DNA from: Candidatus Limnocylindria bacterium
Lineage (GTDB): Bacteria > Chloroflexota > Limnocylindria > QHBO01
DNA: 64,000 nt
Reading direction: 5' to 3'
NCBI GenBank assembly: GCA_044866355.1
Contig: JBIOTW010000033.1
Coordinates: 13,373 to 77,372, forward strand
Of this stretch, positions 3,295-57,786 are shown in pieces. The notes beneath the pieces were generated by a model. That model did no database searches. It saw only the letters and a list, made by a program, of their open reading frames with translations, and was not told the origin of the DNA. Each line of letters starts with the position of its first letter. Positions within the stretch are counted from its first letter, which is position 1. Both the position numbers and the translations under genes were made by a program.

Positions 3295-3400
3295 ACTACG
3301 GACGTGCGGAGAATCCCGGACCCGACCAGGCGCCTGGTCGCCAACGCGGACGCAAGGGACTGGCTGGGCGGCGCCGTTCCGAGCCCCGCGGCCGCTTTCA

Positions 3401-7985: not shown

Positions 7986-8002
7986 AGACCGAAAGGAAAC
8001 CG

Positions 8003-34023: not shown

Positions 34024-34026
34024 CCC

Positions 34027-35082: not shown

Positions 35083-35091
35083 GGTCGACCG

Positions 35092-35982
35092 GTGCGCCGC
35101 GTGCCCGGCCTGCCTGGGCTGTCCCGGCTGTCAGGCTCCAGTCCGTATCGGCGCAGCCGGGGAAGGCAGTGGTGGGCGGTGCTCGCGGTGGTATCGCTGG
35201 CCCTGATCGTCGTGTCGGGGACCGAGGCGGTGCGATCGATTCAGCGCGCAACGACCCAACTCTTGAGCCCCGTCCACGGAACGCTGACCGGGATCGGCTC
35301 CGCCGCGGCCGACCTGGTGGAGACGATCGCAGAGATCGATCGGCTGCGGACCGAGAATGACGAGCTGCGCAGCGCCCTCGCCGGCGCGGAGCAGCGCATC
35401 GCCGAGCTCCAGGAAGCCGCGCGAGACAACGCACGCCTACGCGCCCTCCTGGGCCTGCCGCCGGTGCTCGGGTGGGAGCTCCTTCCGGCCCGGGTGACGA
35501 GCGCGGGCACCAGCGTGCTCAGCTGGGAGGTGGGCGTCAACGTGGGTCGAAACGACGGCGTCCGGGTGGGGATGGCGGTGGTGGGCGACGCGGAGGGGGG
35601 CGGCGGGCTGGCCGGAGTCGTCGTCGAGGCCAGCCCGGACAGTGCGGTGGTCCGGCTCGTCGTCGACCCCCGCGCCCGGGTGGTGGCTCGGGACCAGCGG
35701 ACCGAGGCCCTGGGCCTGGTGCAGGGGCAGCCGGGTGGCCAGCTGATCATGACCCAGGTCACGCTCACCGACGAGGTTGCGGTGGGCGACACGATCGTGA
35801 CCGCGGGCCTGGAGCTGGCGGGCGTCGCCGCCAGTCCGTACCCCCGCGGCCTGCTGCTGGGAACGGTCACCGCGCTCGAGGCCGACGCGAACGGCCTGAC
35901 CCAGACCGCGTTCGTCCGCCCGGCCATTGATCCGCGGACCGTGGAATGGCTGATGGTCGTCCTCTCCACCACGATCGACTGA
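35092..35982 (+). CDS. mreC: Rod shape-determining protein MreC
   Basis: 296 aa; N-terminal TM, coiled-coil (IDRLRTENDELRSALAGAEQRIAELQEA), C-terminal beta domains (GDTIVTAGLE). Confidence 0.8.
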   Translation: MRRVPGLPGLSRLSGSSPYRRSRGRQWWAVLAVVSLALIVVSGTEAVRSIQRATTQLLSPVHGTLTGIGSAAADLVETIAEIDRLRTENDELRSALAGAEQRIAELQEAARDNARLRALLGLPPVLGWELLPARVTSAGTSVLSWEVGVNVGRNDGVRVGMAVVGDAEGGGGLAGVVVEASPDSAVVRLVVDPRARVVARDQRTEALGLVQGQPGGQLIMTQVTLTDEVAVGDTIVTAGLELAGVAASPYPRGLLLGTVTALEADANGLTQTAFVRPAIDPRTVEWLMVVLSTTID

Positions 35983-38451: not shown

Positions 38452-38649
38452 CGACCACGCCCTGACCGCGCGATGACCACGCCCTGACCGAAGGGGAATC
38501 TCGCTCCGGGCCGGTTGAACCCTGGCAGCCGATCGGCCCGGGAGGTTCGTACCATGGGCTTGCGGCCCTCACGTCGGTACGGTGCAGACCGCTGGAGTCC
38601 GGTGCGGTCGCCCCGGCTACCCGGCAGCTGACGAGGTCAATCGCCCGAC

Positions 38650-41517
38650 GTGCGTCGATTCCCCGCACCGAATTCAGTTGCGTTCACGGTCCTGCTGGCC
38701 GTGGCCACGGCGCTCGGCGCACCCCCGCCGGTCAGCGCCGTGGACCCTCCCGCCGGAGGCGTCCCCTGGCCGGTCCCCCCGACAGTGGCAGACGGACCCG
38801 TCACGCTGCCCAACGGGAAGGTGCTCCCCGTCGCGCCCCAGGGGCTCGGCCAACAGCAGTCGGTGCAGGCCGAGATGGAGGCACAGCACGCCCAGGAGGT
38901 CTTTGACTTCTTGCCGGGCGTGACGCCCGCACCGATGGCAGCGGCCGCCCCCGCATCGCTCGCCCGCGTATCGACCACCGGGAATCCGGCTAGCGCATCG
39001 CTGCTGGGACTGGCCGGCCCCAATGCCGCTCCCCGCGCCATCCCCAACCAGGGCCCCGCCGCCATCTACGCCGCCAGCCTGCCGAACGGGCTGCGCAAGG
39101 AGGTCCTCGGCTTCCTGCCGTACTGGATGCTCTCCGCCGATGAGCTGCAGTGGATGCGGTACGACCTGGTCACGACCATCGCCTACTTTGGCGTCGCCGC
39201 TCAGTCCGATGGCACCCTGGCCACCTACTCGACCGGGTGGTCCGGCTGGAACAGCTCCGCCATGACGGGCGTCATCAACGCCGCTCATGCGCGCGGGGTC
39301 CGGGTCGTCCTCACCGTGACCATGATGGCCTGGGATGGGGGAGCCCAGCAGGCTGCCCTGCTAGGCAGCGGATCGGCCCGGGCGCAGCTCGTCAACGCGA
39401 TCGTGGCCGCCGTTCGCGACCGAAACGCCGACGGCGTCAACCTCGACTTCGAGCCGGTTGGGGTGCCCCAACGCGACCAGTTCACTTCATTCGTGCGCCA
39501 GGTCAAGGCGGCTCTCGTGGCGGCCGGTATCGGCTCCTACCTGACCGTGTGCACCATGGCCGGGGCCGGCACCTGGGCCACCGGCTACGACCTGGCCGGG
39601 CTGGTTGCCGCGGGCGCCGCCGACCAGCTGTTCGTGATGGGCTACGACTACAGTTGGTCGGGCTCGGCTCGAGCCGGCGGCGTGGCGCCCATGGACTCGC
39701 CCTACATGCTCGACGTGAACGAGTCGGTCGCGGACTACCTCGACATCGTGCCCGGTTCCAAGGTCATCTGGGGAGTGCCGTACTACGGTCGGACCTGGCT
39801 GACCCAGTCGGATGCGCTGAATGCGTCGACCGTCCCCGGGGCGTCGGGCTCGTCGCGGGCCTACTACTACGTCGGGAACGTGGTGCTTTCCAACCGCTAT
39901 GGGCGGCTCTGGGACGCGGTCGGACAGGTGCCCTGGTTCCGCTATTACGACAGCACCGCCGCGTCCTGGGTCCAGGGCTACTACGACGATGCGGTGTCGC
40001 TCGCCGCGAAGTGGGACATGGTCAACCAGCAGGATCTGGCTGGCACCGGCATGTGGACGCTCCTTATGGATGGAGGCAGCTCGGACCTGTGGAACGTTCT
40101 CGCCAGCAAGTTCCTGACCCCGCTGCCCTTGCCCGTGTCCGAGACCTACGACCCGCCGCGGACCCTCTATTTCGCGGCGGGCACCTACGTTGGCCGCCAG
40201 TTCAACGCCACCGGCGCCATCACCGCCAGTCTCCCGTACACGCTGGCCAACCCCTCGAACGCGCCGACCAGCCAGCGCAGCACGATCCCCAACCAGCCCG
40301 GGAGCTGGTACCACATCACGGCCGGCGTGTGGGCCGGCTACTGGATTCAGGAGTCGGCCGGGACCGTCCTGGGCCCTCCACCAACGCCACCGCCCACGAC
40401 CTTCGTGCCGCTTTCCCCGGCCCGGGTCCTGGACACCAGGATCGGGACCGGGCTGGGTGGGCCGTTCAGCCCGCATAGCCCGCGCACGTTCCAGGTTGGC
40501 GGCGTCAGCGGAGTGCCTGCCACAGCGACCGCGGTCACGGGCACGCTGACGGTTACGAACACGACCCAGCCCGGGTCGGTGTACCTCGGCCCCAACTCGC
40601 TCACGCACCCATCAAGCTCGACCCTGAACCTGCCCGCGGGCGATACCCGGGCCAGCGGTGTCACCGTGGCCCTCAGCCCGAGCGGGGCCCTGAGCGCGAC
40701 GTTCAGCGCGGCAGGGGGCACTACTGACGTGGTGTTTGACGTGACTGGCTACTTTGTGCCCGATTCGAGCGGGACAACCTTCGTGCCTCTGGCTCCCGCC
40801 CGACTGCTCGATACTCGGAACGGCACCGGCCTGGCCGGGCCATTCAGTCCCCACGCCCCGCGCACGATTGCGGTCGCCGGCTCTGGTGGGGTGCCCGCCA
40901 CCGCGACCGCCGTCACCGGCACCCTGACCGTCACCAACGCGAACGCGCCCGGCTATGTGTACATCGGGCCCGACCCGGTTGCGCAGCCGACCAGTTCGAC
41001 TCTGAATCTGCCGGCCGGCGACACCCGCGCCACCGGGGTGACGGTGGCACTGGGCAGTGGCGGGACCCTGAGCCTGACCTTTGGCGCGGCTGCTGGCCGC
41101 GCGGATCTGGTGTTCGACGTGACCGGCTACTTCGTCCCCGGTGGAAGCGGCGCACGCTTCGTGCCACTCAACCCGGCCCGCCTCCTGGACACCCGGATCG
41201 GGAACGGATTGGCCGGCCCGTTCGGCCCCGGCACCCCGCGCACATTCGCGGCCGCCGGCCGCGGCGGGGTGCCGACCACCGCGACGGGGGTCACCGGCAC
41301 GCTGACCATCACCAACTCGACCGCGGGAGGCTGGGCCTACCTCGGTCCCGCGCCCCTCGCGACCCCGTCGAGCTCCACCCTGAATGTCCCGGCCGGCGAC
41401 ACGCGGGCCACCGGGGTGACGGTCGCCCTCGGCACGGGCGGGACCCTGAGCGCGACCACCGGCTACGCGGGCAGCGCCGACTTGGTGTTCGACGTGACCG
41501 GCTATTTCGTGCCCTGA
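38650..41517 (+). CDS. Secreted glycoside hydrolase family 18 (chitinase/peptidoglycan hydrolase-like) protein with three C-terminal ~120-aa repeats of the same family
   Basis: 955 aa; GTG start, signal peptide; GH18 catalytic motif DGVNLDFEP; ~100-aa linker domain; three repeats matching those of the upstream protein. Confidence 0.7.
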   Translation: MRRFPAPNSVAFTVLLAVATALGAPPPVSAVDPPAGGVPWPVPPTVADGPVTLPNGKVLPVAPQGLGQQQSVQAEMEAQHAQEVFDFLPGVTPAPMAAAAPASLARVSTTGNPASASLLGLAGPNAAPRAIPNQGPAAIYAASLPNGLRKEVLGFLPYWMLSADELQWMRYDLVTTIAYFGVAAQSDGTLATYSTGWSGWNSSAMTGVINAAHARGVRVVLTVTMMAWDGGAQQAALLGSGSARAQLVNAIVAAVRDRNADGVNLDFEPVGVPQRDQFTSFVRQVKAALVAAGIGSYLTVCTMAGAGTWATGYDLAGLVAAGAADQLFVMGYDYSWSGSARAGGVAPMDSPYMLDVNESVADYLDIVPGSKVIWGVPYYGRTWLTQSDALNASTVPGASGSSRAYYYVGNVVLSNRYGRLWDAVGQVPWFRYYDSTAASWVQGYYDDAVSLAAKWDMVNQQDLAGTGMWTLLMDGGSSDLWNVLASKFLTPLPLPVSETYDPPRTLYFAAGTYVGRQFNATGAITASLPYTLANPSNAPTSQRSTIPNQPGSWYHITAGVWAGYWIQESAGTVLGPPPTPPPTTFVPLSPARVLDTRIGTGLGGPFSPHSPRTFQVGGVSGVPATATAVTGTLTVTNTTQPGSVYLGPNSLTHPSSSTLNLPAGDTRASGVTVALSPSGALSATFSAAGGTTDVVFDVTGYFVPDSSGTTFVPLAPARLLDTRNGTGLAGPFSPHAPRTIAVAGSGGVPATATAVTGTLTVTNANAPGYVYIGPDPVAQPTSSTLNLPAGDTRATGVTVALGSGGTLSLTFGAAAGRADLVFDVTGYFVPGGSGARFVPLNPARLLDTRIGNGLAGPFGPGTPRTFAAAGRGGVPTTATGVTGTLTITNSTAGGWAYLGPAPLATPSSSTLNVPAGDTRATGVTVALGTGGTLSATTGYAGSADLVFDVTGYFVP
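40404..41514 (+). repeat. Three tandem ~370-nt coding repeats at the 3' end of 38650-41517, same family as 37343-38448
   Basis: ttcgacgtgaccggctacttcgtc at ~41113 and ~41491 and tttgacgtgactggctactttgtg at ~40738 recur with the upstream gene's repeat ends. Confidence 0.7.
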
Positions 41518-41533: not shown

Positions 41534-42454
41534 TCAAATCTGCTCTGATCGGGACTGGCGCGCCGCCAGCACCCGCTCCCACACGGTCCGCATCCCGGCG
41601 CGATAGCGCTCCACGCTGAACCGTTCCGCGCCCGCCGCCACCGCGGCGGGGTCGTAGTCCGGAACGCGCGCCAGCGCCCCCGCGTAGTCGCCGTCACGGA
41701 CGAGCGTGCCCGTGACGCCATCGGTCACGATGTCGGCCAGCCCGCCGACCGCGCTGGCCACGACCCACCGCCCGGAGGCGATCGCCTCCGCCGCCACTAG
41801 CCCATACGGCTCCTCGCGCGACGGAACGAGCACCACGTCATGGCTGGCCATCAAAGCGGGCACCTGGGTGGGATCGACCTCGTCGATGCCCGGCCCAACG
41901 AGCGTGTCGGCCAGTTGGCGCGCCACGTCCACGCCCTTGTCCGCAACGTCGCCCCCCAGATACAGGACCCGCCGTTGCGCCGGTCTGGGCGTAGGGCCGA
42001 AGCGGGCGAGGTCGATGCCGGGTGGGATGATTTCGGCCCGCCCACCGAGCCGGGCGACCTGCTCCGCCGTCTCACCGGAATTCGCCAGCACCGCGTCCGC
42101 GGACGCGATCACGCGGCGCGCCAGCCAGCGGTGTAGGGCCGAACGGTGAGCCGCATCCCGGACATCGGTGCCGTGGGCGTACACGACCAACGGCAACCCG
42201 CGCAACCGAGCCCCGATCAGGGCTGCAGGGCCGGTCGCCAGCACGAAGTGCGCCTCCACGCCATCGAATCGGCCGCGCCTGGCCATCGCCTCCCAGACGA
42301 GCCGGGCGAAACGCGCCCAGCGCGGACCGTCATATCGGTGCGGGGCAACCACGGTCGCCTGCAGGCCCGGATCGGCGAGCCGATCCCGGACGAAGGCCCC
42401 GGCCGCTGGTCGATCGGCAGTCGGGTACCGGGCGGTCACGACCAGCAGGCGCAT
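41534..42454 (-). CDS. Glycosyltransferase family 4 (GT-B, group 1)
   Basis: Internal ATG at 42452-42454 ([11 protein letters not shown]) gives ~306 aa; EX7E-like C-terminal region ([15 protein letters not shown]). Upstream part of the track ORF is Arg/Pro junk. Confidence 0.65.
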
Positions 42455-42489
42455 GGAGCTCGACGGTAGCACGCGTAGAATCGCGGGCA

Positions 42490-43224
42490 ATGTCGACCAT
42501 CGCCGCTCCCCGTCGGGCGGATGGGCGCCTGCCCAACCAGCTTCGTCCGGTGAAGATCGTGCCGGACTACCTGAAGTTCGCGGAAGGTTCGGCCCTGATC
42601 CGGGTGGGCGAGACGCGCGTGCTGTGCGCGGCGACCCTCGAGGACCGCGTGCCGCCATTCCTGCGCGGCAAGGGAACCGGCTGGGTGACTGCCGAGTACA
42701 GCATGCTGCCCCGGGCCGGCACCGAGCGCACCCCACGCGAGGCGAGCACCGGCAAGATCGGGGGGCGTACGCACGAGATCCAGCGCCTCATCGGCCGCTC
42801 CCTGCGCCAGGTGGTCGACCTGTCACGCCTGGGGGAGCGCAGCGTGACCCTCGACTGCGACGTCATCCAGGCCGATGGCGGGACCCGGACGGCCTCGATC
42901 ACCGGCGCCTACGTGGCCCTGGCGCGAGCCCTGAATCGGTATGGCATGGGTCACCTGCTGACCGGCCAGGTGGCGGCGGTGAGCGTCGGAATGGCGGGCG
43001 GGACGCTCCTCCTGGACCTCGACTACGCCGAGGACTCGTCGGCCGGGGTGGACTTCAACGTCGTCATGCTCGACAACGGGCGCTTCGTCGAGGTGCAGGG
43101 CACAGCCGAGCAGACTCCGTTCAGCGCCGAGCAGATGACCGAGATGGTGACCCTCGCCGCGGCGGGGATCCGCCAGCTGTACGAGCTGCAACGCGAGGCC
43201 ATCGCCGCCCCAGCCACCGAGTGA
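42490..43224 (+). CDS. rph: Ribonuclease PH
   Basis: 244 aa; [54 protein letters not shown]. Confidence 0.9.
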
Positions 43225-43856
43225 GTCGGCTGCTGGTCGCCACCAATAACCCGGGAAAGCTGGCCGAGTATCGGCGCCTGCTGGCGCCCCTGGACGCGGA
43301 CGTGGTGAGCCCCGGCCAGATCGGCCTGGTGATGGACGTGCTCGAACCGTACGCGACCTACGCGGAGAACGCCGCCGCCAAGGCGACGGCCTTCTGCCTG
43401 GCGTCGGGCGAGATCACGCTGGCCGACGACTCCGGCATTGAGGCGGCGGCCCTCGACTGGGGGCCCGGCGTCCACTCGGCCCGGTCCGCGCCACCAGGCG
43501 GTCCCCCCGGTCCGGATCTGCTGCTCACCCGACTGGCCACTGCCACGGACCGTCGGGCGCGGATGGTGTGCTGGATCGCCCTGGCCGTGCCGGACCCGAG
43601 CCGCCGCACCGCTCCGCGAGTCGAGCTGTTCGAGGGCGTCATGGAGGGCCGGATCGCCACCCAGCGCCGGGGTGAGGGCGGCTTCGGGTATGACCCCATC
43701 TTCGAGCTCCCGGACGGGCGGACCACGGCCGAGATCCCCGAGGCCAGGAAGGATGCCCAGTCCCATCGCGGTCGGGCGGTGGCGTCCGCGTTGCCGCGCC
43801 TGCGGGAGGTCCTCTCGGCCCGCGCTAGAATGCCGGCGACAGCGGAGGACGCATGA
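43221..43856 (+). CDS. rdgB: Non-canonical purine NTP pyrophosphatase (RdgB/HAM1)
   Basis: GTG overlapping the rph stop; [31 protein letters not shown]. Confidence 0.85.
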
Positions 43857-44455
43857 ACGAAGGCTCGTCCGTGCGCATCCACCCAACGGCCGACGTGTCC
43901 GCCGACGCGGTCATCGGCCCCGGCACCAGCATCTGGAACCAGACCCAGGTCCGCGAGCGTGCCCGGATCGGGTCGGACTGCGTGCTCGGCAAGAACGTGT
44001 ACGTCGACCTGGACGTGGTCGTGGGGGATCGGGTCAAGATCCAGAACAACGCCTCGCTGTTCCACGGTGTGACCGTCGAGGACGGCGTGTTCATCGGTCC
44101 CCACGTATGCCTCACGAATGACCGATTGCCCCGCGCGGTGAACCCGGACGGATCAGCCAAGACCGATGCCGACTGGGACGTGGGCCCCATTCGAGTCCGC
44201 ACCGGGGCCGCGCTCGGCGCGGCCAGCGTGGTCCTGCCGGGGGTCACCATCGGGCGCTGGGCGCTGGTCGGAGCGGGCAGCGTGGTGACCCGCGACGTTG
44301 CGGACTACGCGATGGTGCTCGGCAACCCGGCCCGTCGGATCGGGAGCGCCTGCCCCTGTGGAGAGCCCCTGCGCGACGGGCCGGACGGGACGCCGTTCAG
44401 CGGTCCGTGCCCCAGCTGCGGGCGCCAGTTCCCCCCGGTGGAGGATGCCGCGTGA
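43853..44455 (+). CDS. Left-handed beta-helix (hexapeptide) sugar N-acetyltransferase, WbpD/WlbB-like, with C-terminal Cys4 zinc ribbon
   Basis: 200 aa; hexapeptide repeats (IGPGTSIWNQTQV, IGSDCVLGKNVYV, IGRWALVGAGSVV); C-terminal CPCGEP...CPSCG. Confidence 0.7.
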   Translation: MNEGSSVRIHPTADVSADAVIGPGTSIWNQTQVRERARIGSDCVLGKNVYVDLDVVVGDRVKIQNNASLFHGVTVEDGVFIGPHVCLTNDRLPRAVNPDGSAKTDADWDVGPIRVRTGAALGAASVVLPGVTIGRWALVGAGSVVTRDVADYAMVLGNPARRIGSACPCGEPLRDGPDGTPFSGPCPSCGRQFPPVEDAA

Positions 44456-45552
44456 AGGTCGTCTCGGTGGTGGGTGCCCGACCCCAGTTCATCAAGGCGG
44501 CGCCGGTCAGCCGCGTCCTGCGGGAAGACCATCACGAGGTCCTGGTTCACACCGGCCAGCATTACGACGACGCGATGAGCGCGGTGTTCTTCCGCGATCT
44601 CGACATGGCGCCACCGGACCGCGATCTGGAGGTCGGCAGCGGGACCCATGGCCATCAGACCGCCGAGATGCTGCGCCGCCTGGAGCCGCTCCTGACCGAG
44701 GAGGCGCCGGACGTGGTCCTGGTCTACGGGGACACGAACTCCACCCTGGCCGGCGCCCTGGTCGCCGCCAAGATGGTGGATCCCGCGGGGCGCCGGCCGT
44801 GGCTCGCCCACGTGGAGGCCGGCCTGCGCTCGTTCAACCCGGCCATGCCCGAGGAGCGCAACCGGATCGTGGCGGATCATCTGTCCGACCTGGCCCTGGC
44901 GCCCACTCCTGCGGCCATGGCCAATCTCGCGCGCGAGGGCCTGGCTGAACGCGCGGAGATGGTCGGCGACGTCATGGTGGACGCCTTTGTGGCCGCGTCC
45001 GGGCGCGCCGACGACCATTTGCCGGCCGAGGCCGAGCCCGGGCCGTACCTGCTCCTCACCCTCCACCGCCCATCCAACGTGGATGATCCCGCGCGCCTCG
45101 ACGCATGGCTGACCGCGGTGGCCGGGGAGGCGGGTCGCGTCCTGTTCCCGATCCATCCGCGCACGCGGGGCGTCCTCGAGCGGGCGGGGATCGAGGCACC
45201 GTCGGGCGTCACCCTCCTCGAGCCGCAGGGCTACCTGGCGATGGTCGCCCTGGAGCGCGCCGCACGGGTCATCGCCACCGACTCGGGCGGGGTTCAGAAG
45301 GAGGCGTACCTCGCCAGCGTTCCCTGCGTCACCCTGCGCGCCGAGACTGAGTGGGTGGAAACCCTCGAGACCGGCTGGAACCGGCTGTGCCCCGAGCCCA
45401 GCGACGCTCCAGCCGCCATCCGCGCCGCCGAGGCGTTCGACCGCACGGCACCGAGGCCGGCACTCTTCGGCGACGGGCAGGCCGCGGGTCGGATCGTCGC
45501 CGCGCTGGAGCGCCTGACCTTAAGCCGCGCCTCCGCCCTGGTGGCGTCGTGA
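44452..45552 (+). CDS. UDP-N-acetylglucosamine (or diacetamido-uronate) 2-epimerase, WecB/WbpI-like
   Basis: GTG overlapping the upstream stop; KVVSVVGARPQFIKAAPV, HTGQHYD, GDTNSTLAGALVAAK, DSGGVQKEA. Confidence 0.85.
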   Translation: MKVVSVVGARPQFIKAAPVSRVLREDHHEVLVHTGQHYDDAMSAVFFRDLDMAPPDRDLEVGSGTHGHQTAEMLRRLEPLLTEEAPDVVLVYGDTNSTLAGALVAAKMVDPAGRRPWLAHVEAGLRSFNPAMPEERNRIVADHLSDLALAPTPAAMANLAREGLAERAEMVGDVMVDAFVAASGRADDHLPAEAEPGPYLLLTLHRPSNVDDPARLDAWLTAVAGEAGRVLFPIHPRTRGVLERAGIEAPSGVTLLEPQGYLAMVALERAARVIATDSGGVQKEAYLASVPCVTLRAETEWVETLETGWNRLCPEPSDAPAAIRAAEAFDRTAPRPALFGDGQAAGRIVAALERLTLSRASALVAS

Positions 45553-46655
45553 TCCCCATCGCCCGCCCGCTGCTCGGCCCCGAGGAGCAGGCGCTGGTCG
45601 CCGAGACCCTGGCTTCCGGCGCCCTGGCCCAGGGGCCGCGCGTTCGGGAGCTCGAGGAGCGGTTCGCGGAATTCGTGGGCGTGCCGCACGCGGTGGCCAC
45701 CTCGTCGGGGACGACCGCCCTGCACCTGGCGCTCCTGGCCGCGGGGGTCGGACCCGGGTTGGAGGTCGTCACCGTTCCGTTCACCTTTATCGCCAGCGCC
45801 AGCAGCGTCGTGTACACCGGCGCCCGCCCGGTCTTCGTCGACATCGATGCCCGCTCGTTCACGATGGACCCGGCGCAGGTCGAGGCCGCCATCACGCCTC
45901 GCACCCGGGCGATCATGCCGGTCAGCCTGTATGGGCAGCCCGCCGACCTGCCGGCGATCGAGGACATCGCCCAACGCCACGGGCTGGCCCTCATCGAGGA
46001 TGCGGCACAGAGCCACGGCGCCGCCCTCGACGGACGCCGCTCGGGGAGCTGGGGGCAGGGCGTCTTCAGCTTCTACCCGACCAAGAACATGACCGCCGCC
46101 GAAGGCGGCATGATCACGACCTCTGATCCAAGCCTCGCCGAATGGTCCCGTCTCCGCCGGGAGCACGGAATGAAGGTCCGCTACCGCCATGACGTGCTGG
46201 GGTACAACTTCCGGATGACCGACATCCACGCCGCCATCGGCCTGGCCCAGCTCGACAAGCTGCCCGCCTTCAACGCCCGCCGGATGGCGATCGCCGGCCG
46301 CTACGCCCAGTCGCTGCGGGGTGTCGTGACGCCGTGGCAGCGTCCAGACGCGACTCATGTCTTCCACCAGTACACGTTGCGGGTGGTGCAGCGCGATGCC
46401 TTCGTCGAGCGCTTGCGCCAGCGTGGGGTGGGGACCGGCGTCTACTACCCGATCCCGGTCCACCGCCAGCAGCCGTTCATCGACCTGGGCTACGGCGATC
46501 AGTCGTTCCCGGTCAGCGAGCAGCTGACCGAGGAGGTCGTCTCCATCCCGGTCCACCCCGGGCTCAGCGACGAGGACGTGGACACGGTCATCGAGGCGGT
46601 GAACGCGACCACATCCGAGCTGGGTTCGCACCCGGAGAGTCGGGTGGCGGCGTGA
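45549..46655 (+). CDS. DegT/DnrJ/EryC1/StrS PLP-dependent sugar aminotransferase, WbpE-like
   Basis: GTG overlapping the upstream stop; SSGTTALHLAL, FSFYPTKNMTAAEGG (PLP lysine). Confidence 0.85.
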   Translation: MIPIARPLLGPEEQALVAETLASGALAQGPRVRELEERFAEFVGVPHAVATSSGTTALHLALLAAGVGPGLEVVTVPFTFIASASSVVYTGARPVFVDIDARSFTMDPAQVEAAITPRTRAIMPVSLYGQPADLPAIEDIAQRHGLALIEDAAQSHGAALDGRRSGSWGQGVFSFYPTKNMTAAEGGMITTSDPSLAEWSRLRREHGMKVRYRHDVLGYNFRMTDIHAAIGLAQLDKLPAFNARRMAIAGRYAQSLRGVVTPWQRPDATHVFHQYTLRVVQRDAFVERLRQRGVGTGVYYPIPVHRQQPFIDLGYGDQSFPVSEQLTEEVVSIPVHPGLSDEDVDTVIEAVNATTSELGSHPESRVAA

Positions 46656-47650
46656 CCGCCGAGCCGCTGCGGGCGGCGGTCATCGGTCTGGGCATGATGG
46701 GCGCGAATCACGCCCGCGTCCTCAACGAGCTGCCCAACGTTGACCTGGTGGCCGTCGCAGACCTCGATCCGGCCGCGGTCCTGCGGGCGACCTCGGGACG
46801 CACGGCACAGGGTTACACGTCGGCCGCGGACATGCTGGCCGCCGAGAAGCCGGACCTCGTGGTGGTGGCGGTCCCCACCTCCCTGCACCTGCCGACCACG
46901 CTCATGGCCCTCGAGGCGGGGGCGCACGTCCTGGTCGAGAAGCCCATCGCGGCCGAGCGAGACCAGGCCGAGCAGATGATCGCCGCGGCCGAGTCGGCGG
47001 GTCGCATCCTGACCGTGGGCCACATCGAGCGCTTCAACCCCGCCATCCGCGAGCTCAGCCGGCGGCTGGACGCCGGCGAGATCGGCCGCGTGTTCCAGGT
47101 CCGTGCATCCCGCCTGGGCCCATTTCCGGCGCGCGTCCGCGACGTGGGGGTCGTGGTCGATCTCGCGCCGCACGACCTGGACGTCATGCGCTACCTCCTC
47201 CGCTCGGAGCCGATCCGGCTGTACGCCGAGACGGAGCAGCGGATCCACACCGACCACGAGGACCTTTTTACTGGGCTCATCAAGTTCGCCTCGGGGGCCG
47301 TCGGCCTGCTGGAGATCAACTGGCTGACTCCCACCAAGGTCCGCACCCTGAGCGTGACCGGCGAGCACGGCATGTACACCGCCGACTACATCACCCAGGA
47401 CCTCGTGTACCACGCCAATCCGGAGTCGGGCTCGGTGGCCGAGGGCGAGATCATCTGGCGCCACATCAAGCGTCAGGAGCCGCTGGTGGTCGAGCTGACC
47501 GAGTTCGCGGCCTCCATCCGGGATGGGGGCGCGCCGCCCGTCGACCCGCGTGACGCCCTGACCGCCCTGCTCCTGGCGCGCGCCATGGTGGATGCCGCGG
47601 AACGCGGCGTGATGCTCGGGCGGGACGAGCTCGCCCAGATGCTGCGTTGA
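46652..47650 (+). CDS. Gfo/Idh/MocA-family NAD-dependent sugar oxidoreductase, WbpB-like
   Basis: GTG overlapping the upstream stop; Rossmann AAVIGLGMMGANHARVL, EKP motif LVEKPIA. Confidence 0.8.
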   Translation: MTAEPLRAAVIGLGMMGANHARVLNELPNVDLVAVADLDPAAVLRATSGRTAQGYTSAADMLAAEKPDLVVVAVPTSLHLPTTLMALEAGAHVLVEKPIAAERDQAEQMIAAAESAGRILTVGHIERFNPAIRELSRRLDAGEIGRVFQVRASRLGPFPARVRDVGVVVDLAPHDLDVMRYLLRSEPIRLYAETEQRIHTDHEDLFTGLIKFASGAVGLLEINWLTPTKVRTLSVTGEHGMYTADYITQDLVYHANPESGSVAEGEIIWRHIKRQEPLVVELTEFAASIRDGGAPPVDPRDALTALLLARAMVDAAERGVMLGRDELAQMLR

Positions 47651-48921
47651 AGATCGCCGTCGTTGGGCTGGGGCACATCGGTCTCCCACTGGCGGTCCAG
47701 TACGCCAGCCGTGGCCACCAGGTGATCGGCTGCGACGTCGACGCCCGGGTGGTGGAGGCCATCAACCGCGGGGAGTCGCCCCACGCCGACGAGCCGGTGC
47801 TGGCCGAGCGTGTCCCCCAGCTCGTGCGGGACGGCCTGCTGAGCGCTACGACCGACGACGAGGCCGGCGTCCGCCAGGCCGAGGTGGTGGTCGTCATCGT
47901 CCCGGTGGTCGTGGACGACGCGCGCGAGGTGGACTACTCGCACATCGACGCCGCCACTCGCGAGGTGGCGCGAGGGCTCCAGCCGGGAACCCTGGTCATC
48001 TACGAGACGACGCTTCCGATCGGGACGACACGGGACCGCCTGGGACCGATGCTGGAGGCCGGGTCCGGCCTCCAGCTGGACCGCGACTTCGCTCTGGCCT
48101 TCTCGCCGGAGCGGGTCCTCGTCGGCCGGGTCCTGCTGGACCTTCAGCGCTACCCGAAGATCGTGGGCGCTACCAGCCCTGAGGGCACGCGGCGGGCGGT
48201 GGATTTCTACACCGCGGTCCTGGAGCCAGGAACCGAGGTCCGGGCCATGGCCAGCGCCGAGGCCGCGGAGATGACGAAGCTGGCCGAGACGACGTACCGC
48301 GACGTGAACATCGCTCTCGCCAACGAGTTTGCGCAGGTCGCGGCGCGGCGCGGGATCGACGTGACGGAGGTCATCGCGGCGGCCAATTCCCAGCCGTACA
48401 GCCATATCCACCAGCCGGGGGTGGGAGTCGGCGGCCACTGCATCCCGGTTTACCCGCACCTGCTGTTCAGTGCCGAGCCCGGCCTGCAGCTTCCGCCCCT
48501 GTCCCGGGCGGTCAACGACGGGATGGCGGCCTACGCCGTGGGCCAGCTGGCGGAGGCCCTGGGCTCGCTCCAGGGGGAGTCGGTGCTGATCCTGGGAATC
48601 GGCTATCGGGGCGACGTCCAGGAGGACTTCTTCAGCAGCGCCTTCCTGCTCCGCGAAGCGCTGCAGGCCGGCGGCGCCCGCACATACGCGCACGACCCGT
48701 ACTTCGACGCCGACCACCTCCGCCATCGTGGGTTCGAGCCCTACGACCTGGCCGCTCCGCAACCCGTGCGCGCCGCGATCCTCCAGGCAGCCCACACGGC
48801 CTACCGCGACCTGGACCTCGCCTCGATCCCCGGACTGGAGGTGGTGCTGGACGGCCGAAACGCCCTGGACCGGGAGCGCGTTGAATCGGCCGGCCTCCGC
48901 TACCTGGGAGTCGGGCGCTGA
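47647..48921 (+). CDS. UDP-glucose/GDP-mannose dehydrogenase-family nucleotide-sugar 6-dehydrogenase, WbpA/WecC-like
   Basis: 424 aa; MKIAVVGLGHIGLPLAV, catalytic Cys region GVGVGGHCIPVYP. Confidence 0.85.
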   Translation: MKIAVVGLGHIGLPLAVQYASRGHQVIGCDVDARVVEAINRGESPHADEPVLAERVPQLVRDGLLSATTDDEAGVRQAEVVVVIVPVVVDDAREVDYSHIDAATREVARGLQPGTLVIYETTLPIGTTRDRLGPMLEAGSGLQLDRDFALAFSPERVLVGRVLLDLQRYPKIVGATSPEGTRRAVDFYTAVLEPGTEVRAMASAEAAEMTKLAETTYRDVNIALANEFAQVAARRGIDVTEVIAAANSQPYSHIHQPGVGVGGHCIPVYPHLLFSAEPGLQLPPLSRAVNDGMAAYAVGQLAEALGSLQGESVLILGIGYRGDVQEDFFSSAFLLREALQAGGARTYAHDPYFDADHLRHRGFEPYDLAAPQPVRAAILQAAHTAYRDLDLASIPGLEVVLDGRNALDRERVESAGLRYLGVGR

Positions 48922-48980: not shown

Positions 48981-49706
48981 GTGGTCCTGCCCACGTTCAA
49001 CGAGCGCGAGAACCTGCCTCAGGTCAGCGAAGCGATCTTGGCGGCCCTCCCCGAGGCTCGGCTCCTGGTCGTCGATGACCGCTCTCCCGACGGGACCGGG
49101 GATCTGGCCGACACACTGGCGGCCGCCAATCCGCGGATCGAGGTCCTCCATCGGCCGGCCAAGCAGGGCCTGGGGGCGGCCTATCGGGACGGATTCCGGC
49201 ACGTGCTCGACAAGCCCGGGACCGCCGCCATCATCCAGATGGACGCCGATCTCAGCCACGATCCAGCTGATCTGCCACGTCTGCTCGCGCCGCTCATGCG
49301 GGACGCGGACCTCGTCCTCGGCACCCGCTGGATGCCCGGGGGCGGGACCCGCGGCTGGCCGTGGCATCGGCGCCTGATCAGCCGCGGCGGAACGCTCTTT
49401 GCGCGAACGGTGCTTCTGCTTCCGTATCGCGACCTGACCGGCGGCTTCAAGGCCTGGCGCCGCGACCTGCTGGACGCGATCCGCCTCCGCGAGGCCGATG
49501 CCCATGGCTATGGGTTCCAGGTCGAAACGACCTGGTGGGCGCACCGCCGGCGAGCCGCGATCCGGGAGGTCCCGATCATCTTCCGTGAGCGGGTGGCGGG
49601 GACCTCGAAAATGACCGGCTCCATCGTCCGCGAGGCGATCATCCTCGTGCTCCGCCTCCGGTGGCAGGCCGTGGTACGGAGGCTCAGCCGGCCGCGTGGC
49701 GACTGA
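48981..49706 (+). CDS. GT2 polyprenyl-phosphate glycosyltransferase (Dpm1/Ppm1-like)
   Basis: GTG start; VVLPTFNERENL, DDRSPDGT, MDADLSHDP (DxD). Confidence 0.8.
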   Translation: MVLPTFNERENLPQVSEAILAALPEARLLVVDDRSPDGTGDLADTLAAANPRIEVLHRPAKQGLGAAYRDGFRHVLDKPGTAAIIQMDADLSHDPADLPRLLAPLMRDADLVLGTRWMPGGGTRGWPWHRRLISRGGTLFARTVLLLPYRDLTGGFKAWRRDLLDAIRLREADAHGYGFQVETTWWAHRRRAAIREVPIIFRERVAGTSKMTGSIVREAIILVLRLRWQAVVRRLSRPRGD

Positions 49707-51530: not shown

Positions 51531-52652
51531 ATGACCGATGCCTGGCGCGGACTCGACGGGCTCCTGGCTGCCGCCGGGCTGGATGCGGCCGACGGCGTGC
51601 AGGCCGTCTCGGCCGATCGGCTGGTGGCGGTTGCGTTTGACCCGAGCCTGCCGCTCCTGATTTTGGCCACGGCTGCCTCAGCGGGGGATGCCGCCCCCGC
51701 GCTGCCTGGTCGCCATGCTCGATCCGGCCCGCACGCGGTCCTGGCCGCCCTCTACCCGCACGGCCATCCGATCCGTCCCCTGCCCGGCGGTGAGCCCACC
51801 ACCATCGATGCGGTGGACGACGCGATGCTGCGCGCCGGCGACTGGTTCGTCCCGCCGCTGCCCCCCGACGACAACCTCGCCTCCCCGCATGGCATGGCCG
51901 CCATCAGTGCGCGGTTGCGGGCGCCGGACGGCTGCCCGTGGGATCGGCGCCAGGACCACCGCAGCCTGCGGACCTATCTTCTCGAGGAAGCCTACGAGAC
52001 GGTGGACGCCATCGAGCGTGGCAACCCGGCGGACCTCGCCGAGGAGCTCGGCGACCTGTTCCTGCAGGTCGTCCTCCACGCCCAACTGGCAGCCGAGGAA
52101 GGCCATTTCGATCTGACCGATGTGTACCGGACCCTGGGAGCCAAGATCGTCCGGCGCCATCCGCACGTCTTCGGGGGCCTGGCCGTGAGCGGCGTCGAGC
52201 AGGTGCTCCGGAACTGGGAGACGATCAAGTCCGCCGAACGCGAGGAGGCGGGTCGGCCGCCCGCCTCGTTCGAGGGCGTGGCCCGCGCGTTGCCGGCACT
52301 GCCGGCCAGCCGGGAGATCCAGGAGCGGGCCTCGGCCCTGGGCTGGGACTGGCCGGCGATCGAGGGCGTGTGGGACAAGGTCGGCGAGGAGCTGGACGAG
52401 CTTCGGGCCGCGGCTGCGGACTCGCCGATGCCAGAGGCACGCCTGCACGAGCTCGGCGACGTCCTGTTCGCCCTCGTCAACCTGGGCCGCTGGCTGGGAG
52501 TCGATCCCGAGGAGGCGCTGCGGTCCGCCAACCGACGCTGGGTCGAGCGCTGGGCGGCTGTCGAAGCGCTGGCGGCCGAGCGTGGGCTGGTCCTCGCCGA
52601 CCTGGATGCCGAGGGCAAGGACCGGCTGTGGAACGAGGTCAAGGCCAGGTGA
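51531..52652 (+). CDS. mazG: Nucleoside triphosphate pyrophosphohydrolase MazG (tandem MazG domains)
   Basis: ATG at 51531 in the context tgaccgATG; EExxE motifs LLEEAYETVDAIE and DELGDVLFALVNLGR. The upstream part of the track ORF overlaps the PPIase. Confidence 0.8.
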   Translation: MTDAWRGLDGLLAAAGLDAADGVQAVSADRLVAVAFDPSLPLLILATAASAGDAAPALPGRHARSGPHAVLAALYPHGHPIRPLPGGEPTTIDAVDDAMLRAGDWFVPPLPPDDNLASPHGMAAISARLRAPDGCPWDRRQDHRSLRTYLLEEAYETVDAIERGNPADLAEELGDLFLQVVLHAQLAAEEGHFDLTDVYRTLGAKIVRRHPHVFGGLAVSGVEQVLRNWETIKSAEREEAGRPPASFEGVARALPALPASREIQERASALGWDWPAIEGVWDKVGEELDELRAAAADSPMPEARLHELGDVLFALVNLGRWLGVDPEEALRSANRRWVERWAAVEALAAERGLVLADLDAEGKDRLWNEVKAR

Positions 52653-53854
52653 GCGAGACTCGCGTCGCGCTGGTGGCCCACGCGTCGCTCCCCGACGACA
52701 CGCGGGTGCGACGCCAGGCCGAGGCCCTGCGCGACGCGGGCTATGGCGTGGACCTGTTCGGGCTGCGCGATCCTGGGCAGCCGGAGGTCGAGGAGTGGCG
52801 CGGGCTGCGCATCGTGCGGCTGCCGGTCCGGCGTTCGTTCACCGGCTTCGCGGGGCACCTGGCCGAGTACCTGGCCTTCGCGAGCCTGGCCGCCGTCCGG
52901 CTGGCCGCCGAGCATCGGCAGCGGCGGTACCGGCTGGTGCAGGTAGCGACCCTACCCGACTTTCTCGCCTTCGCCGCGCTGCCCGTTCGGCTGACCGGCG
53001 TTCCGCTGCTCCTCGACCTGCACGAGGACATGCCGGCATTCTTCCGAGACCGGTTCGACAGCCCGGTCCTGCTGCCCCTGGTGGGTATCGTGAACCTGAC
53101 GGCGCGGGCGAGCGCTGCCATCGCGGACGCGATCATCACCGTCCATGAGCCGCTTCGCGAGCTGGCAATCGGACGCGGCGTTCCGGCGCACCGCATCTCG
53201 GTCGTCATGGACAGCGCTGACGAGCGCCTCTTCGACCCTGCCCGCCATCCGCGTCGGCCGTTCATGGAGGACGGCCGGCTGCGGCTCATCCACCACAGCA
53301 ACCTGCAGCGGATCTACGGCCTCGACCTGGCGGTGGAAGCCGTGTCGCTGCTCCCCGCGGATCTGCACGCGCACCTCGACGTCTACGGCGACGGTCCGTT
53401 TCGCGGCCAGGTCGAGGCCGCCATCGCCCGCCACGACGTCGCCGACCGCGTCACGCTCCACGGCCGGGTTGCGCAGGACGCGCTGCCCGAGCTCCTGGCT
53501 TCGGCCGACATCGGTCTGGTCCCCACCCGGCCCGAACCGTACATGGCCTACTCGCTGTCGACCAAGCTGATCGAATACGTGGCCATGGGGGTTCCGGTCA
53601 TCGCCAGCGAGCTGCGGACCTTCCGGTCGCACTTCGACGCGGCGGCCGTCCGCTACGTTCCCGGCGGGGATCCGCGCGCGCTGGCGACGGCGATCGAGGC
53701 GCTTGCCGCCGACCCGGCCGGTGCCGAGGCGCTGGCCATCGAGGCCCGACGCCAGGCCGAGCCGTATGCCTGGGCCGTCCAGTCCGCCCACTACCTGGCC
53801 CTTGTCGACGGTCTCCTGGAGCGCGGTAGACTCGTCGCATCCGGCGGGGTGTAG
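52649..53854 (+). CDS. Glycosyltransferase family 4
   Basis: GTG overlapping the mazG stop; GT-B C-terminal domain with STKLIEYVAMGVPVIAS; annotated 3' end overlaps the tRNA 5' end by 10 nt. Confidence 0.75.
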   Translation: MSETRVALVAHASLPDDTRVRRQAEALRDAGYGVDLFGLRDPGQPEVEEWRGLRIVRLPVRRSFTGFAGHLAEYLAFASLAAVRLAAEHRQRRYRLVQVATLPDFLAFAALPVRLTGVPLLLDLHEDMPAFFRDRFDSPVLLPLVGIVNLTARASAAIADAIITVHEPLRELAIGRGVPAHRISVVMDSADERLFDPARHPRRPFMEDGRLRLIHHSNLQRIYGLDLAVEAVSLLPADLHAHLDVYGDGPFRGQVEAAIARHDVADRVTLHGRVAQDALPELLASADIGLVPTRPEPYMAYSLSTKLIEYVAMGVPVIASELRTFRSHFDAAAVRYVPGGDPRALATAIEALAADPAGAEALAIEARRQAEPYAWAVQSAHYLALVDGLLERGRLVASGGV

Positions 53855-53959: not shown

Positions 53960-54646
53960 ATGACCACGGCCCATCCGAGCCATCCGCCGGCGCATGAGCT
54001 GGTGGTTCCCGAGGCGCCGATGGGAACCGGCTATCGGGTCGCCAAACGCGCCTTCGACGTCATCGGCTCCATCGTCGGCCTGGTTCTGGCGTCCCCCATC
54101 CTGCTTGGCGTGGGAGTCGCGGTCCGGCTCGACTCGCCCGGACCGATCCTCTTCCGCCAGGTCCGGCTGGGACTCGGTGGCCGGCCGTTCACGCTGTTGA
54201 AGTTTCGGACCATGCACCTCAGCGCGGACGAGCGCCGGCACCAGGAGCACATCCGCGAGCTGCTGCCCCCCGGTGGGACCGCCGACGAGGCCATCTGGAC
54301 GCCCATCGCGGCTGACCCTCGGGTCACGGGCATCGGCGCCTTCCTGCGGAAGTCACACCTCGACGAGCTGCCGCAGCTGGTCAACGTCCTGCGCGGCGAG
54401 ATGAGCCTGGTCGGTCCACGGCCCCCGATCCCCTACGAGGTTGAGCTATACGAGCCGTGGCACCTGCCTCGGCTGTCGGTGGCGCCGGGCCTGACGGGGC
54501 TGTGGCAGTCCCGCGGCTGGGGCCAGCTGAGCTTCGCGGAGGGCGTCAAGCTCGACCTCGAGTACGTCGAGCGCCGTTCGTTTGGGCTCGACCTGCGGAT
54601 CATCCTCCGGACGGCGTGGCAATACCTGTTGGGTCGCCAGTTCTAG
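53960..54646 (+). CDS. Bacterial sugar transferase (polyprenyl-phosphate phosphoglycosyl transferase, WbaP/WecA-like small type)
   Basis: 228 aa; KRAFDVIGSIVGLVLASPIL, RPFTLLKFRTM, PGLTGLWQ. Confidence 0.85.
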   Translation: MTTAHPSHPPAHELVVPEAPMGTGYRVAKRAFDVIGSIVGLVLASPILLGVGVAVRLDSPGPILFRQVRLGLGGRPFTLLKFRTMHLSADERRHQEHIRELLPPGGTADEAIWTPIAADPRVTGIGAFLRKSHLDELPQLVNVLRGEMSLVGPRPPIPYEVELYEPWHLPRLSVAPGLTGLWQSRGWGQLSFAEGVKLDLEYVERRSFGLDLRIILRTAWQYLLGRQF

Positions 54647-57627: not shown

Positions 57628-57786
57628 GAACCGGGGTCTGGGGGGAGCGGGAGGCCGAGTATAGCAAGGGACGCTCGGGCGCCCAGAAGTGTTGCCAGAG
57701 CGCACCGATTGGGGGGTACGGACGGGTTAGTACCTTTGCGCCCGTCGTCGGGCCGCTCCCATACTGTGGGAGGACCGAGACGGAGC

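Follow-up and report, generated by a model that had tools for sequence, protein, structure and literature searches.

The stretch of DNA analysed here (64 kb of contig JBIOTW010000033.1 from a Candidatus Limnocylindria bacterium; hereafter the window) carried five consecutive plus-strand genes for nucleotide-sugar enzymes. All five enzyme types of the pathway to UDP-2,3-diacetamido-2,3-dideoxy-mannuronic acid (UDP-ManNAc3NAcA), namely a 6-dehydrogenase, a 3-dehydrogenase, an aminotransferase, an N-acetyltransferase and a 2-epimerase, were encoded contiguously according to Pfam and NCBIfam. The block consisted of the following genes:

43853–44455, plus strand: hexapeptide N-acetyltransferase of the WbpD/WlbB type (200 amino acids, ATG start)
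44452–45552, plus strand: non-hydrolysing 2-epimerase of the WbpI type (366 amino acids, GTG start)
45549–46655, plus strand: DegT-family pyridoxal phosphate-dependent aminotransferase, WbpE-like (368 amino acids, GTG start)
46652–47650, plus strand: Gfo/Idh/MocA oxidoreductase, sugar 3-dehydrogenase (332 amino acids, GTG start)
47647–48921, plus strand: nucleotide-sugar 6-dehydrogenase, in the place of WbpA (424 amino acids, TTG start)

An initial annotation, made from the sequence alone, had claimed five enzyme genes in a row. This was confirmed by the gene calls, by Pfam matches (E-values about 1e-25 to 3e-128), by the G+C content at third codon positions (0.88–0.92 in the called frames) and by identical gene calls on the public contig of GCA_044867505.1. 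All four internal junctions, read from the sequence, were 4-base stop/start overlaps. Three were GTGA; the one between the oxidoreductase and the dehydrogenase was TTGA because the dehydrogenase starts with TTG, the only start that retains its N-terminal GxGxxG motif. In the related locus L085, this junction was GTGA. The chain of overlaps began two genes further upstream, with GTGA between rph and rdgB and ATGA between rdgB and the acetyltransferase gene:

42490–43224, plus strand: rph (RNase PH; Pfam RNase_PH), a housekeeping gene and the first gene of the overlap chain
43221–43856, plus strand: rdgB/Ham1 XTP/dITP diphosphatase (Pfam Ham1p_like; NCBIfam PRK14822 with 152 bits, curated cut-off 234)

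The annotation had described every junction as GTGA or ATGA. The 4-base overlaps stood throughout, but the fourth internal junction had a different sequence and the chain was longer than described. From rph through the 6-dehydrogenase, seven genes were joined by six consecutive 4-base overlaps; in the rest of the window, 3 of 31 same-strand junctions were of this kind. A GGAGGA motif was located 5 nt upstream of the acetyltransferase ATG. The overlaps suggest translational coupling, and the seven genes, including rph and rdgB, are probably co-translated as one unit. It is unusual for genes of nucleotide-pool hygiene, here rph and rdgB, to be joined to those for envelope sugars. Two further Limnocylindria genomes also had rph, rdgB and the sugar genes side by side; the overlap of rdgB with the acetyltransferase gene was present in L085, and L086 had a 31-nt gap instead.

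The closest homologues of the 6-dehydrogenase (72–92% identity) came from metagenome-assembled genomes (MAGs) labelled Candidatus Limnocylindria or Chloroflexota by their sources; Limnocylindria is a class of the Chloroflexota. A survey paper on Limnocylindria, which covers uncultured members only, reported a mean genome size of 2.39 Mb and a mean GC content of 68.9%, with which the GC content of the window (70%) agreed. An actinobacterial origin was ruled out by the taxonomy of the homologues, the GC content and the genome size, and the label 'actinobacterial-type' initially given to the locus was wrong. The wider gene order comprised a glycoside hydrolase family 18 (GH18) gene, a glycosyltransferase family 4 (GT4) gene on the minus strand, rph, rdgB, the five genes, a glycosyltransferase family 2 (GT2) gene, ppiC, mazG, a second GT4 gene, a phosphoglycosyl transferase gene and, on the minus strand, genes for a Wzy_C-domain protein and a LytR-CpsA-Psr (LCP) protein. 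This order recurred in two other Limnocylindria genomes (L085 and L086; about 2 Mb) with 65–85% protein identity. A horizontally acquired island was ruled out by the flat GC content (0.70–0.72) and the conserved synteny with housekeeping genes. Because the order recurs in relatives and the composition is flat, the five-gene block belongs to the conserved core genome of Candidatus Limnocylindria.

In L086 (positions 6718–8961; contig_6347 of ERZ25039603), the epimerase and aminotransferase were called as a single 747-amino-acid protein, in which the C-terminal helix of the epimerase was swapped for unrelated sequence continuing in frame into the aminotransferase. This open reading frame (ORF) stems from a frameshift or faulty assembly, unless the two genes are truly fused.

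The five predicted enzymes

Pseudomonas aeruginosa and Bordetella were represented in the comparisons by orthologues by synteny from Acidovorax (L017) and Photorhabdus (L077), calibrated against the PDB. The WbpB-class enzyme of L017 scored 559 bits with P. aeruginosa WbpB (3OA2) and 311 bits with the Thermus enzyme, and the WlbA-class enzyme of L077 scored 555 bits with that of Chromobacterium violaceum (3Q2I) and 486 bits with that of Bordetella pertussis. The comparison with WbpA was likewise made with orthologues by synteny, not with PAO1 WbpA. Trees were built by neighbour joining from BLOSUM62 distances with 100 bootstraps; some PDB sequences entered as their aligned parts only, and the deep branching is to be read with caution.

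Among solved structures, the best match of the epimerase was the UDP-GlcNAc3NAcA 2-epimerase of Thermus thermophilus (8SXY; 331 bits), followed at a distance by the UDP-N-acetylglucosamine (UDP-GlcNAc) 2-epimerase of Methanocaldococcus jannaschii (242 bits) and Escherichia coli WecB (119 bits). The Thermus enzyme is adapted to its substrate by Trp307 in place of the Arg that binds the 3-OH group, Ala18 in place of Leu/Met and Tyr96 in place of His/Gln, and the room for the C6 carboxylate is ascribed to the Ala/Tyr pair (PMC10622841). Arg10, Gln12, Lys15 and Ala16 of the window epimerase corresponded to Arg12, Gln14, Lys17 and Ala18 of the Thermus enzyme, and Tyr92, Asp94, Glu300 and Trp301 to Tyr96, Asp98, Glu306 and Trp307. 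All catalytic residues and the full Gln/Ala/Tyr/Trp specificity signature were retained, as were most of the residues that form the allosteric pocket for UDP-GlcNAc. When 37 epimerases were aligned, 32 WbpI-type enzymes had Gln/(small residue)/Tyr/Trp at the discriminating positions; five WecB-type enzymes, including E. coli WecB, had Glu/Met-Leu/His-Gln/Arg where these positions were covered. Identity to the WbpI orthologues was 42–47%. Judged by these residues, the enzyme is clearly of the WbpI type with the signature of a UDP-GlcNAc3NAcA 2-epimerase, and this signature is the strongest single piece of evidence for a predicted 2,3-diacetamido uronic acid product. The Trp/Ala/Tyr signature implies that the 3-acetamido group would be introduced before epimerisation; less decisively, it also appears to fit a prior C6 carboxylate.

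When species-representative genomes were scanned once with the Thermus epimerase, at least 599 matches to WbpI-type epimerases were confirmed, and the best 80 loci were used. These best 80 of at least 599 spanned many bacterial phyla as well as methanogens, and among the matches listed many of the epimerase genes were flanked by other Wbp-like genes. The sugar had initially been described as rare, a view not borne out by a genetic signature this common across bacterial phyla and archaea. Thermus, P. aeruginosa and Bordetella were absent among the matches listed. The epimerase of locus L004 (AP024675.1, 'Bacteroidetes bacterium KatS3mg041') was 88% identical to the T. thermophilus HB27 enzyme, far above the other matches, which suggests either a recent transfer or a GTDB Thermus representative without the cluster.

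The acetyltransferase (Pfam Hexapep, about 1e-24) belonged to the left-handed beta-helix type. Its best solved relative was WlbB of Bordetella petrii (3MQG; 2.4e-36, full-length alignment), the next matches were other 3-amino-sugar N-acetyltransferases such as QdtC, and it was 42–43% identical to the WbpD orthologues. The aminotransferase (Pfam DegT_DnrJ_EryC1, 3e-128) contained the PTKN lysine motif and was 40–41% identical to the WbpE orthologues and 44–60% identical to its counterparts in Wbp-like clusters of Chloroflexota and Acidimicrobiales. It was less similar to the second DegT genes that these loci carry (31–36%) than to the aminotransferases in a Wbp context (40–60%). It scored 253 bits with WbpE (3NU7) and 253–268 bits with perosamine synthase, QdtB and ArnB; C4 and dTDP-sugar aminotransferases together covered a range of 253–283 bits.

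The 3-dehydrogenase contained the EKP and D..H motifs. Its best NCBIfam match was the archaeal UDP-GlcNAc 3-dehydrogenase NF040723 (277.5 bits, below the cut-off of 450). Within the PDB it scored 96 bits with C. violaceum WlbA, 94 with GnnA and 79 with B. pertussis WlbA, and the WbpB structures (3OA2/3O9Z) were not among its 60 best matches. The GnnA entry, 7BVJ, is one which we take to be a UDP-GlcNAc 3-dehydrogenase. The tree separated a WbpB class (bootstrap 100), a WlbA class (98) and a third group (87), which held the window enzyme, those of L078 and L072, archaeal enzymes and several fused dehydrogenase-acetyltransferase proteins. Within this group, the window enzyme was 50% identical to an Anaerolineales relative, 38% to an Acidimicrobiales relative and 27–29% to the archaeal members. 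On sequence grounds it is assigned to a third class that is orthologous to neither WbpB nor WlbA and groups with sugar C3-dehydrogenases. The fusions are single ORFs of 535–576 amino acids that combine a class-3 3-dehydrogenase with a WbpD-like acetyltransferase (L014, 7119–8792; L021, 7271–9001; L033, 2–1702; L080, 3588–5195). They occurred in MAGs of Deltaproteobacteria, Omnitrophota and Acidobacteria and adjoined WbpI-type epimerases.

The 6-dehydrogenase scored 313 bits with TIGR03026, and UDP-ManNAc dehydrogenases ranked first in both NCBIfam and the PDB. In a tree of context-labelled sequences, it paired with an Acidimicrobiales homologue that itself lies in a D-E-B-A block, the letters standing for the Wbp-type genes (bootstrap 100). 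It fell outside the WecC clade, which comprised E. coli WecC, Cap5O and Pyrococcus horikoshii 4R16 (bootstrap 90), and its identity to the WecC, WbpA and PDB-represented archaeal groups was 30–36%. In the gammaproteobacterial locus L075 (14–3496), genes for a WecB-type epimerase and a WecC-clade dehydrogenase directly precede one for a WbpA-clade dehydrogenase and the remaining genes of a Wbp set. This locus provides a built-in control for the distinctness of the WecC and WbpA clades of dehydrogenases.

Predicted pathway and competing readings

In our view, the operon probably makes UDP-ManNAc3NAcA from UDP-GlcNAc, with epimerisation as the last step. Catalytic motifs were intact in four of the five enzymes. 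The Gfo/Idh/MocA enzyme would oxidise C3, the DegT enzyme would transaminate it and the beta-helix acetyltransferase would N-acetylate the product (UDP-GlcNAc3N(A) to UDP-GlcNAc3NAc(A)). The 6-dehydrogenase would oxidise C6 to the acid, either first, as with WbpA, or after 3-acetamidation. The WbpI-type epimerase would then turn UDP-GlcNAc3NAcA into UDP-ManNAc3NAcA; with this step last, the substrate of the 6-dehydrogenase would be gluco-configured. The initial match of the block to WbpD-WbpI-WbpE-WbpB-WbpA stands for the enzyme set, the epimerase signature and the WlbB-like acetyltransferase. For WbpB and WbpA it holds at the superfamily level only.

Several observations count against this reading, which is built on activities predicted from sequence. 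Matches in a promoter and terminator consensus scan of the 41–58 kb region were at chance level only. The regiospecificity of the aminotransferase is not readable from its scores. A WbpB-class seed gave no match in the window at E ≤ 1e-3, and a WlbA-class seed matched the 3-dehydrogenase with 24% identity and 73 bits; because the enzyme also forms a separate clade, the 3-oxidation step would be filled by an analogue rather than by a WbpB or WlbA orthologue. The 6-dehydrogenase was excluded from the clade of WbpA orthologues by synteny (bootstrap 97), with the archaeal clade also separate, and its identity to WbpA orthologues was 32–35%, about as close as to WecC. The active site of UDP-glucose dehydrogenases contains six highly conserved residues (Thr131, Glu161, Lys220, Asn224, Cys276 and Asp280 in the human enzyme), of which Asn224 and a water held by Asp280 are proposed to stabilise the oxyanion (PMC3129169). 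The window enzyme retained Thr122, Glu155, Lys211 and Cys265, and had Thr215 in place of the Asn and Tyr269 in place of the Asp. Its exact chemistry is uncertain because two of the six residues are replaced.

The replaced residues mark a subfamily. The conserved Asp was kept in 21 of 21 other aligned sequences and the Asn in all 20 that covered the position; the window lineage had the motifs GGHCIPVYP, as opposed to GGxC...D elsewhere, and KLAET, as opposed to K...N elsewhere. A search of 1.84 billion representative proteins was evaluated on the best 150 clusters at 50% identity. About 110 of these 150 clusters had Cys-x3-Tyr together with a non-Asn partner, and where Asp was present it was accompanied by Asn. 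The two changes covary in the subfamily: Asp (Cys+4) becomes Tyr, and Asn (Lys+4) becomes Thr, Gly, Met, Cys or Ser. In a profile search, members turned up in Chloroflexota, in Acidobacteria and in cultured Bacillaceae (Priestia, Ureibacillus, Virgibacillus, Metabacillus); since the subfamily is common in the last of these, it could readily be characterised. It had no solved structure in the PDB and no specific NCBIfam model. Beyond close Limnocylindria relatives, the Cys-x3-Tyr dehydrogenase adjoined a DegT aminotransferase gene in five of six contexts examined. Four of these five, spread over three phyla, also contained a class-3 oxidoreductase and an acetyltransferase-like gene, and one Chloroflexota contig with the Tyr-type dehydrogenase had a complete I-D-E-B-A block with genes for glycosyltransferases and a flippase after it. 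Because of this recurrent adjacency, the subfamily can be taken to fill the WbpA slot by association.

Spore-coat protein X genes (PF07552) were found beside the Tyr-type dehydrogenase in L089 (GCA_054777795.1, 'Barrientosiimonas marina') and L090 (GCA_039521925.1, 'Agaribacter marinus'). Such genes misfit an actinobacterium or a gammaproteobacterium, and both records may carry a wrong label or Bacillaceae contamination.

The same product may be reached in another order, which we regard as possible yet clearly the less likely course: C3 oxidation of UDP-GlcNAc, amination and acetylation to UDP-GlcNAc3NAc, and only then C6 oxidation and epimerisation. This order would fit the remodelled active site of the 6-dehydrogenase, and none of the five clusters that combine the window's 3-dehydrogenase subgroup with a 6-dehydrogenase has a WbpA-clade enzyme. 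A UDP-GlcNAc 3-dehydrogenase family (NF040723) is the nearest curated family of the oxidoreductase, although the score is well under the cut-off. The archaeal prototype MMP0352 was used as a UDP-GlcNAc dehydrogenase in vitro, and GnnA scores as well as WlbA against the window enzyme. Against this order, archaeal homologues are reported to complement P. aeruginosa wbp mutants. Locus L073 also pairs a class-3 3-dehydrogenase with a WbpA-clade 6-dehydrogenase, and C6 oxidation comes first in every reconstituted system (PMC10622841).

It is improbable that the 6-dehydrogenase acts outside the pathway, or without the full four-electron oxidation, so that the product would be neutral (UDP-ManNAc3NAc or UDP-GlcNAc3NAc) or another derivative. 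The changes Asn to Thr and Asp to Tyr at two of six conserved residues would allow for this; neither NCBIfam nor the PDB yielded a characterised or solved member of the subfamily, and one member (L091) had no adjacent Gfo/Idh/MocA gene. However, the enzyme still has the catalytic Cys, Lys, Glu and Thr, and the epimerase has the Ala16/Tyr92 pair whose counterpart was tied to the C6 carboxylate in the Thermus study (PMC10622841). The subfamily is also large, strongly conserved and repeatedly found beside acetyltransferase, 3-dehydrogenase and aminotransferase genes in three phyla, and in all three Limnocylindria genomes the 6-dehydrogenase gene overlaps the preceding gene by 4 bases.

A WecB/WecC-type pathway to UDP-ManNAcA next to an unrelated amino-sugar pathway is very improbable: UDP-ManNAc dehydrogenases rank first for the dehydrogenase and the epimerase exceeds the cut-off of TIGR00236 ('wecB'), but where all WecB-type enzymes bind the 3-OH through an Arg, the epimerase has Trp301 (PMC10622841), the dehydrogenase lies outside the WecC clade (bootstrap 90), the five genes are probably translationally linked, and the window genes scanned did not include a 4,6-dehydratase. 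The latter result also led us to reject a 4-keto-6-deoxy pathway, as did the grouping of the oxidoreductase with sugar 3-dehydrogenases. The placements that the initial annotation had named as grounds for refuting it were thus not obtained.

The preferred assignment, with UDP-ManNAc3NAcA as the product, suggests that the textbook Wbp pathway has been assembled from non-orthologous parts in different lineages, with 3-dehydrogenases of three classes and 6-dehydrogenases of at least four lineages apparent from the sequences. Because the parts are non-orthologous across lineages, the best-hit names 'WecC', 'UDP-GlcNAc 3-dehydrogenase' and 'wecB' misname these genes. We tentatively hypothesize that a version of the pathway exists in Terrabacteria (Chloroflexota, Actinomycetota, Bacillota) that combines a class-3 3-dehydrogenase with a Cys-x3-Tyr 6-dehydrogenase, whose partner residue (Thr/Gly/Met) covaries with the change from Asp to Tyr. 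It would possibly begin with 3-amination of UDP-GlcNAc and oxidise C6 later. In the streamlined Limnocylindria genomes it would perhaps supply a constitutive, teichuronic-acid-like core wall polymer and be co-expressed with rph and rdgB.

Candidate assembly genes and the possible fate of the sugar

Candidate genes for glycan assembly were found on both sides of the operon, all between 41.5 and 60.5 kb of the window:

41534–42490, minus strand: GT4 glycosyltransferase, divergent, upstream of rph (Pfam Glyco_transf_4 and Glycos_transf_1; weak TuaC match; position conserved)
48981–49706, plus strand: small GT2 glycosyltransferase (Pfam Glycos_transf_2, 7e-30), 59 nt downstream of the 6-dehydrogenase
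52628–53854, plus strand: GT4 glycosyltransferase (Pfam Glyco_trans_1_4 and Glyco_trans_4_4; position conserved)
53960–54646, plus strand: small monotopic polyprenyl-phosphate phosphoglycosyl transferase, candidate initiating enzyme (Pfam Bac_transf, 2e-59)
54600–56288, minus strand: Wzy_C-domain membrane protein, polymerase- or ligase-like (Pfam Wzy_C, 3e-15; position conserved)
56155–57627, minus strand: LCP glycopolymer transferase (Pfam 1e-23; TIGR00350 above cut-off)
59206–60492, plus strand: second LCP glycopolymer transferase (Pfam 8e-34; TIGR00350 with 108 bits)

The LCP genes mentioned in the initial annotation were thus present as two copies. The phosphoglycosyl transferase, GT4, GT2, Wzy_C and two LCP genes lay within 12 kb, in an order conserved in relatives. 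The phosphoglycosyl transferase scored 261 bits with TIGR03025, below the cut-off of 295.55. The GT2 protein resembled polyprenyl-phosphate sugar synthases, with weak NCBIfam matches of the PpgS, AglJ and ArnC type (about 55 bits, far under the cut-offs), and its position was conserved in L085 and L086. The public gene call for the GT4 gene at 52628–53854 starts at 52649, overlapping the mazG stop.

By inference from the neighbouring genes only, the sugar may be built into a lipid-linked, Wzy-type, teichuronic-acid-like glycan that is attached to peptidoglycan by LCP enzymes. The phosphoglycosyl transferase, GT4, GT2 and Wzy_C proteins would be the candidate glycan machinery, and an LCP enzyme would attach the finished glycan. 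The general occurrence of LCP proteins in walled Chloroflexi supports this assignment. It is weakened in two ways. The link between the sugar genes and the LCP genes is one of proximity only, because the housekeeping genes ppiC and mazG lie between them. Furthermore, no flippase (Wzx/MOP) or ATP-binding cassette exporter was found among the genes scanned in the 64 kb; the related Chloroflexota cluster L092 carries a Polysacc_synt flippase.

These two points would also suit a different fate, which we consider a plausible minority view: the sugar might go onto a surface glycoprotein (of an S-layer or another kind), onto a glycolipid or into a polysaccharide that is secreted. The same sugars decorate archaeal archaellins and S-layers, Thermus, with the most similar cluster, has glycolipids instead of lipopolysaccharide (LPS), and the adjacent GT2 protein resembles synthases that feed extracytoplasmic glycosylation. 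On the other hand, the arrangement of phosphoglycosyl transferase, GT4, Wzy_C and LCP genes beside the operon was kept in three genomes, and there are precedents in the wall polymers of Streptomyces and Geobacillus. Given these precedents, the prediction of a wall polymer with this sugar was not new for monoderms: it has already been described in the teichuronic acid of Streptomyces griseus and in Geobacillus wall polymers.

If the wall-polymer assignment is true, it would be the first concrete prediction of what the Candidatus Limnocylindria envelope contains chemically: an anionic polymer at the cell surface, with ManNAc3NAcA as a component and encoded in the core genome. These bacteria are uncultured and widespread in soil and fresh water, and have small genomes of about 2.4 Mb. 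The sugar, the logic of its pathway and its use in monoderm walls are already known, and no major concept is changed; what is new is the predicted pathway in a poorly known phylum, with two steps assigned to enzymes that are non-orthologous to those of Pseudomonas.

Further genes near the operon or elsewhere in the window were recorded. Genes for diguanylate cyclases encoded a GGDEF protein with an HD-GYP-type HD domain (26295–28010, minus strand) and a GGDEF protein (57709–59058, plus strand) between the two LCP genes; a GGDEF gene also follows an LCP gene in L085. This placement may indicate control of surface polymer production by cyclic di-GMP. A GlgE-like maltosyltransferase gene was followed by mreB and mreC with gaps of 3–9 nt (31930–35982), an arrangement that indicates a rod-shaped cell with a peptidoglycan wall. 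The glycosyltransferase/rph block was directly preceded by two large plus-strand genes (36175–41517) for a PKD-domain protein of 758 amino acids and a GH18 chitinase-like protein of 955 amino acids; GH18 genes occupied the same position in relatives. At 1777–4083, an aromatic amino acid lyase gene (1777–3294, minus strand; Pfam 7e-197) overlapped a PAP2-domain ORF (2542–4083, plus strand) by about 750 bases. The start of this ORF was probably called too far upstream, as the domain is confined to the C-terminal part.

Comparison with known systems

Thermus thermophilus HB27 encodes the same five activities in five adjacent genes (WP_011172736-39 and WP_148187554; epimerase structures 8SXV-8SYH). 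The Thermus order, I-D-E-B-A as inferred from consecutive accessions, differs from the D-I-E-B-A order of the window only in that I and D have traded places, a likeness that speaks for the pathway assignment. I-D-E-B-A was also found in two other Chloroflexota contigs, L078 and L092. The epimerases of the two systems match with 331 bits and are identical in their active-site and specificity residues. In contrast, the Thermus 3-dehydrogenase belongs to the WbpB class (3O9Z) and its 6-dehydrogenase is 49% identical to WbpA, whereas the window has a class-3 and a Tyr-type enzyme in their places.

The WbpA/B/E/D/I enzymes of P. aeruginosa O5 and WlbA-D of Bordetella share the predicted substrate, product and reaction types with the window. 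Their D, E and I enzymes, as represented by the orthologues by synteny, are homologous to those of the window (42–43%, 40–41% and 42–47% identity, respectively). WbpB and WlbA are without an orthologue in the window, and WbpA is 32–35% identical and falls in a different clade. The genes of P. aeruginosa and Bordetella are scattered in a diderm O-antigen locus and their product goes onto LPS, whereas those of the window are contiguous and have LCP genes nearby; the host of the window is taken as a monoderm from the literature on the phylum, not from the window itself.

Clusters of the Methanococcus maripaludis type (MMP0350-0353/0357; loci L036 and L052) have the same third-class 3-dehydrogenase as the window, an aminotransferase that is 46–47% identical and a WbpI-type epimerase with the Trp signature. 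Unlike the window enzyme, their 6-dehydrogenase, a member of the 3G79 clade, has the Asn/Asp pair. Their sugars go onto the N-glycans of archaellins and S-layer proteins.

Among monoderms of other phyla, S. griseus and Geobacillus stearothermophilus have anionic wall polymers with ManNAc3NAcA and are likened to the window by description. The utr genes of S. griseus, which makes a ManNAc3NAcA teichuronic acid, comprise a Wbp-like dehydrogenase, an oxidase/aminotransferase pair, an N-acetyltransferase and a 2-epimerase, and the glycan is carried on wall teichoic acid. The secondary wall polymer of G. stearothermophilus also contains ManNAc3NAcA. The tua system of Bacillus subtilis makes use of a different uronic acid, and the matches of the window to it are weak (TuaC 61 bits, TuaH 28 bits); the window genes scanned included no flippase or chain-length regulator. 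Similar to the set predicted for the window, it combines a Bac_transf initiator, GT4 and GT2 glycosyltransferases, a Wzy_C-type protein and a uronic-acid-forming dehydrogenase with attachment by LCP proteins.

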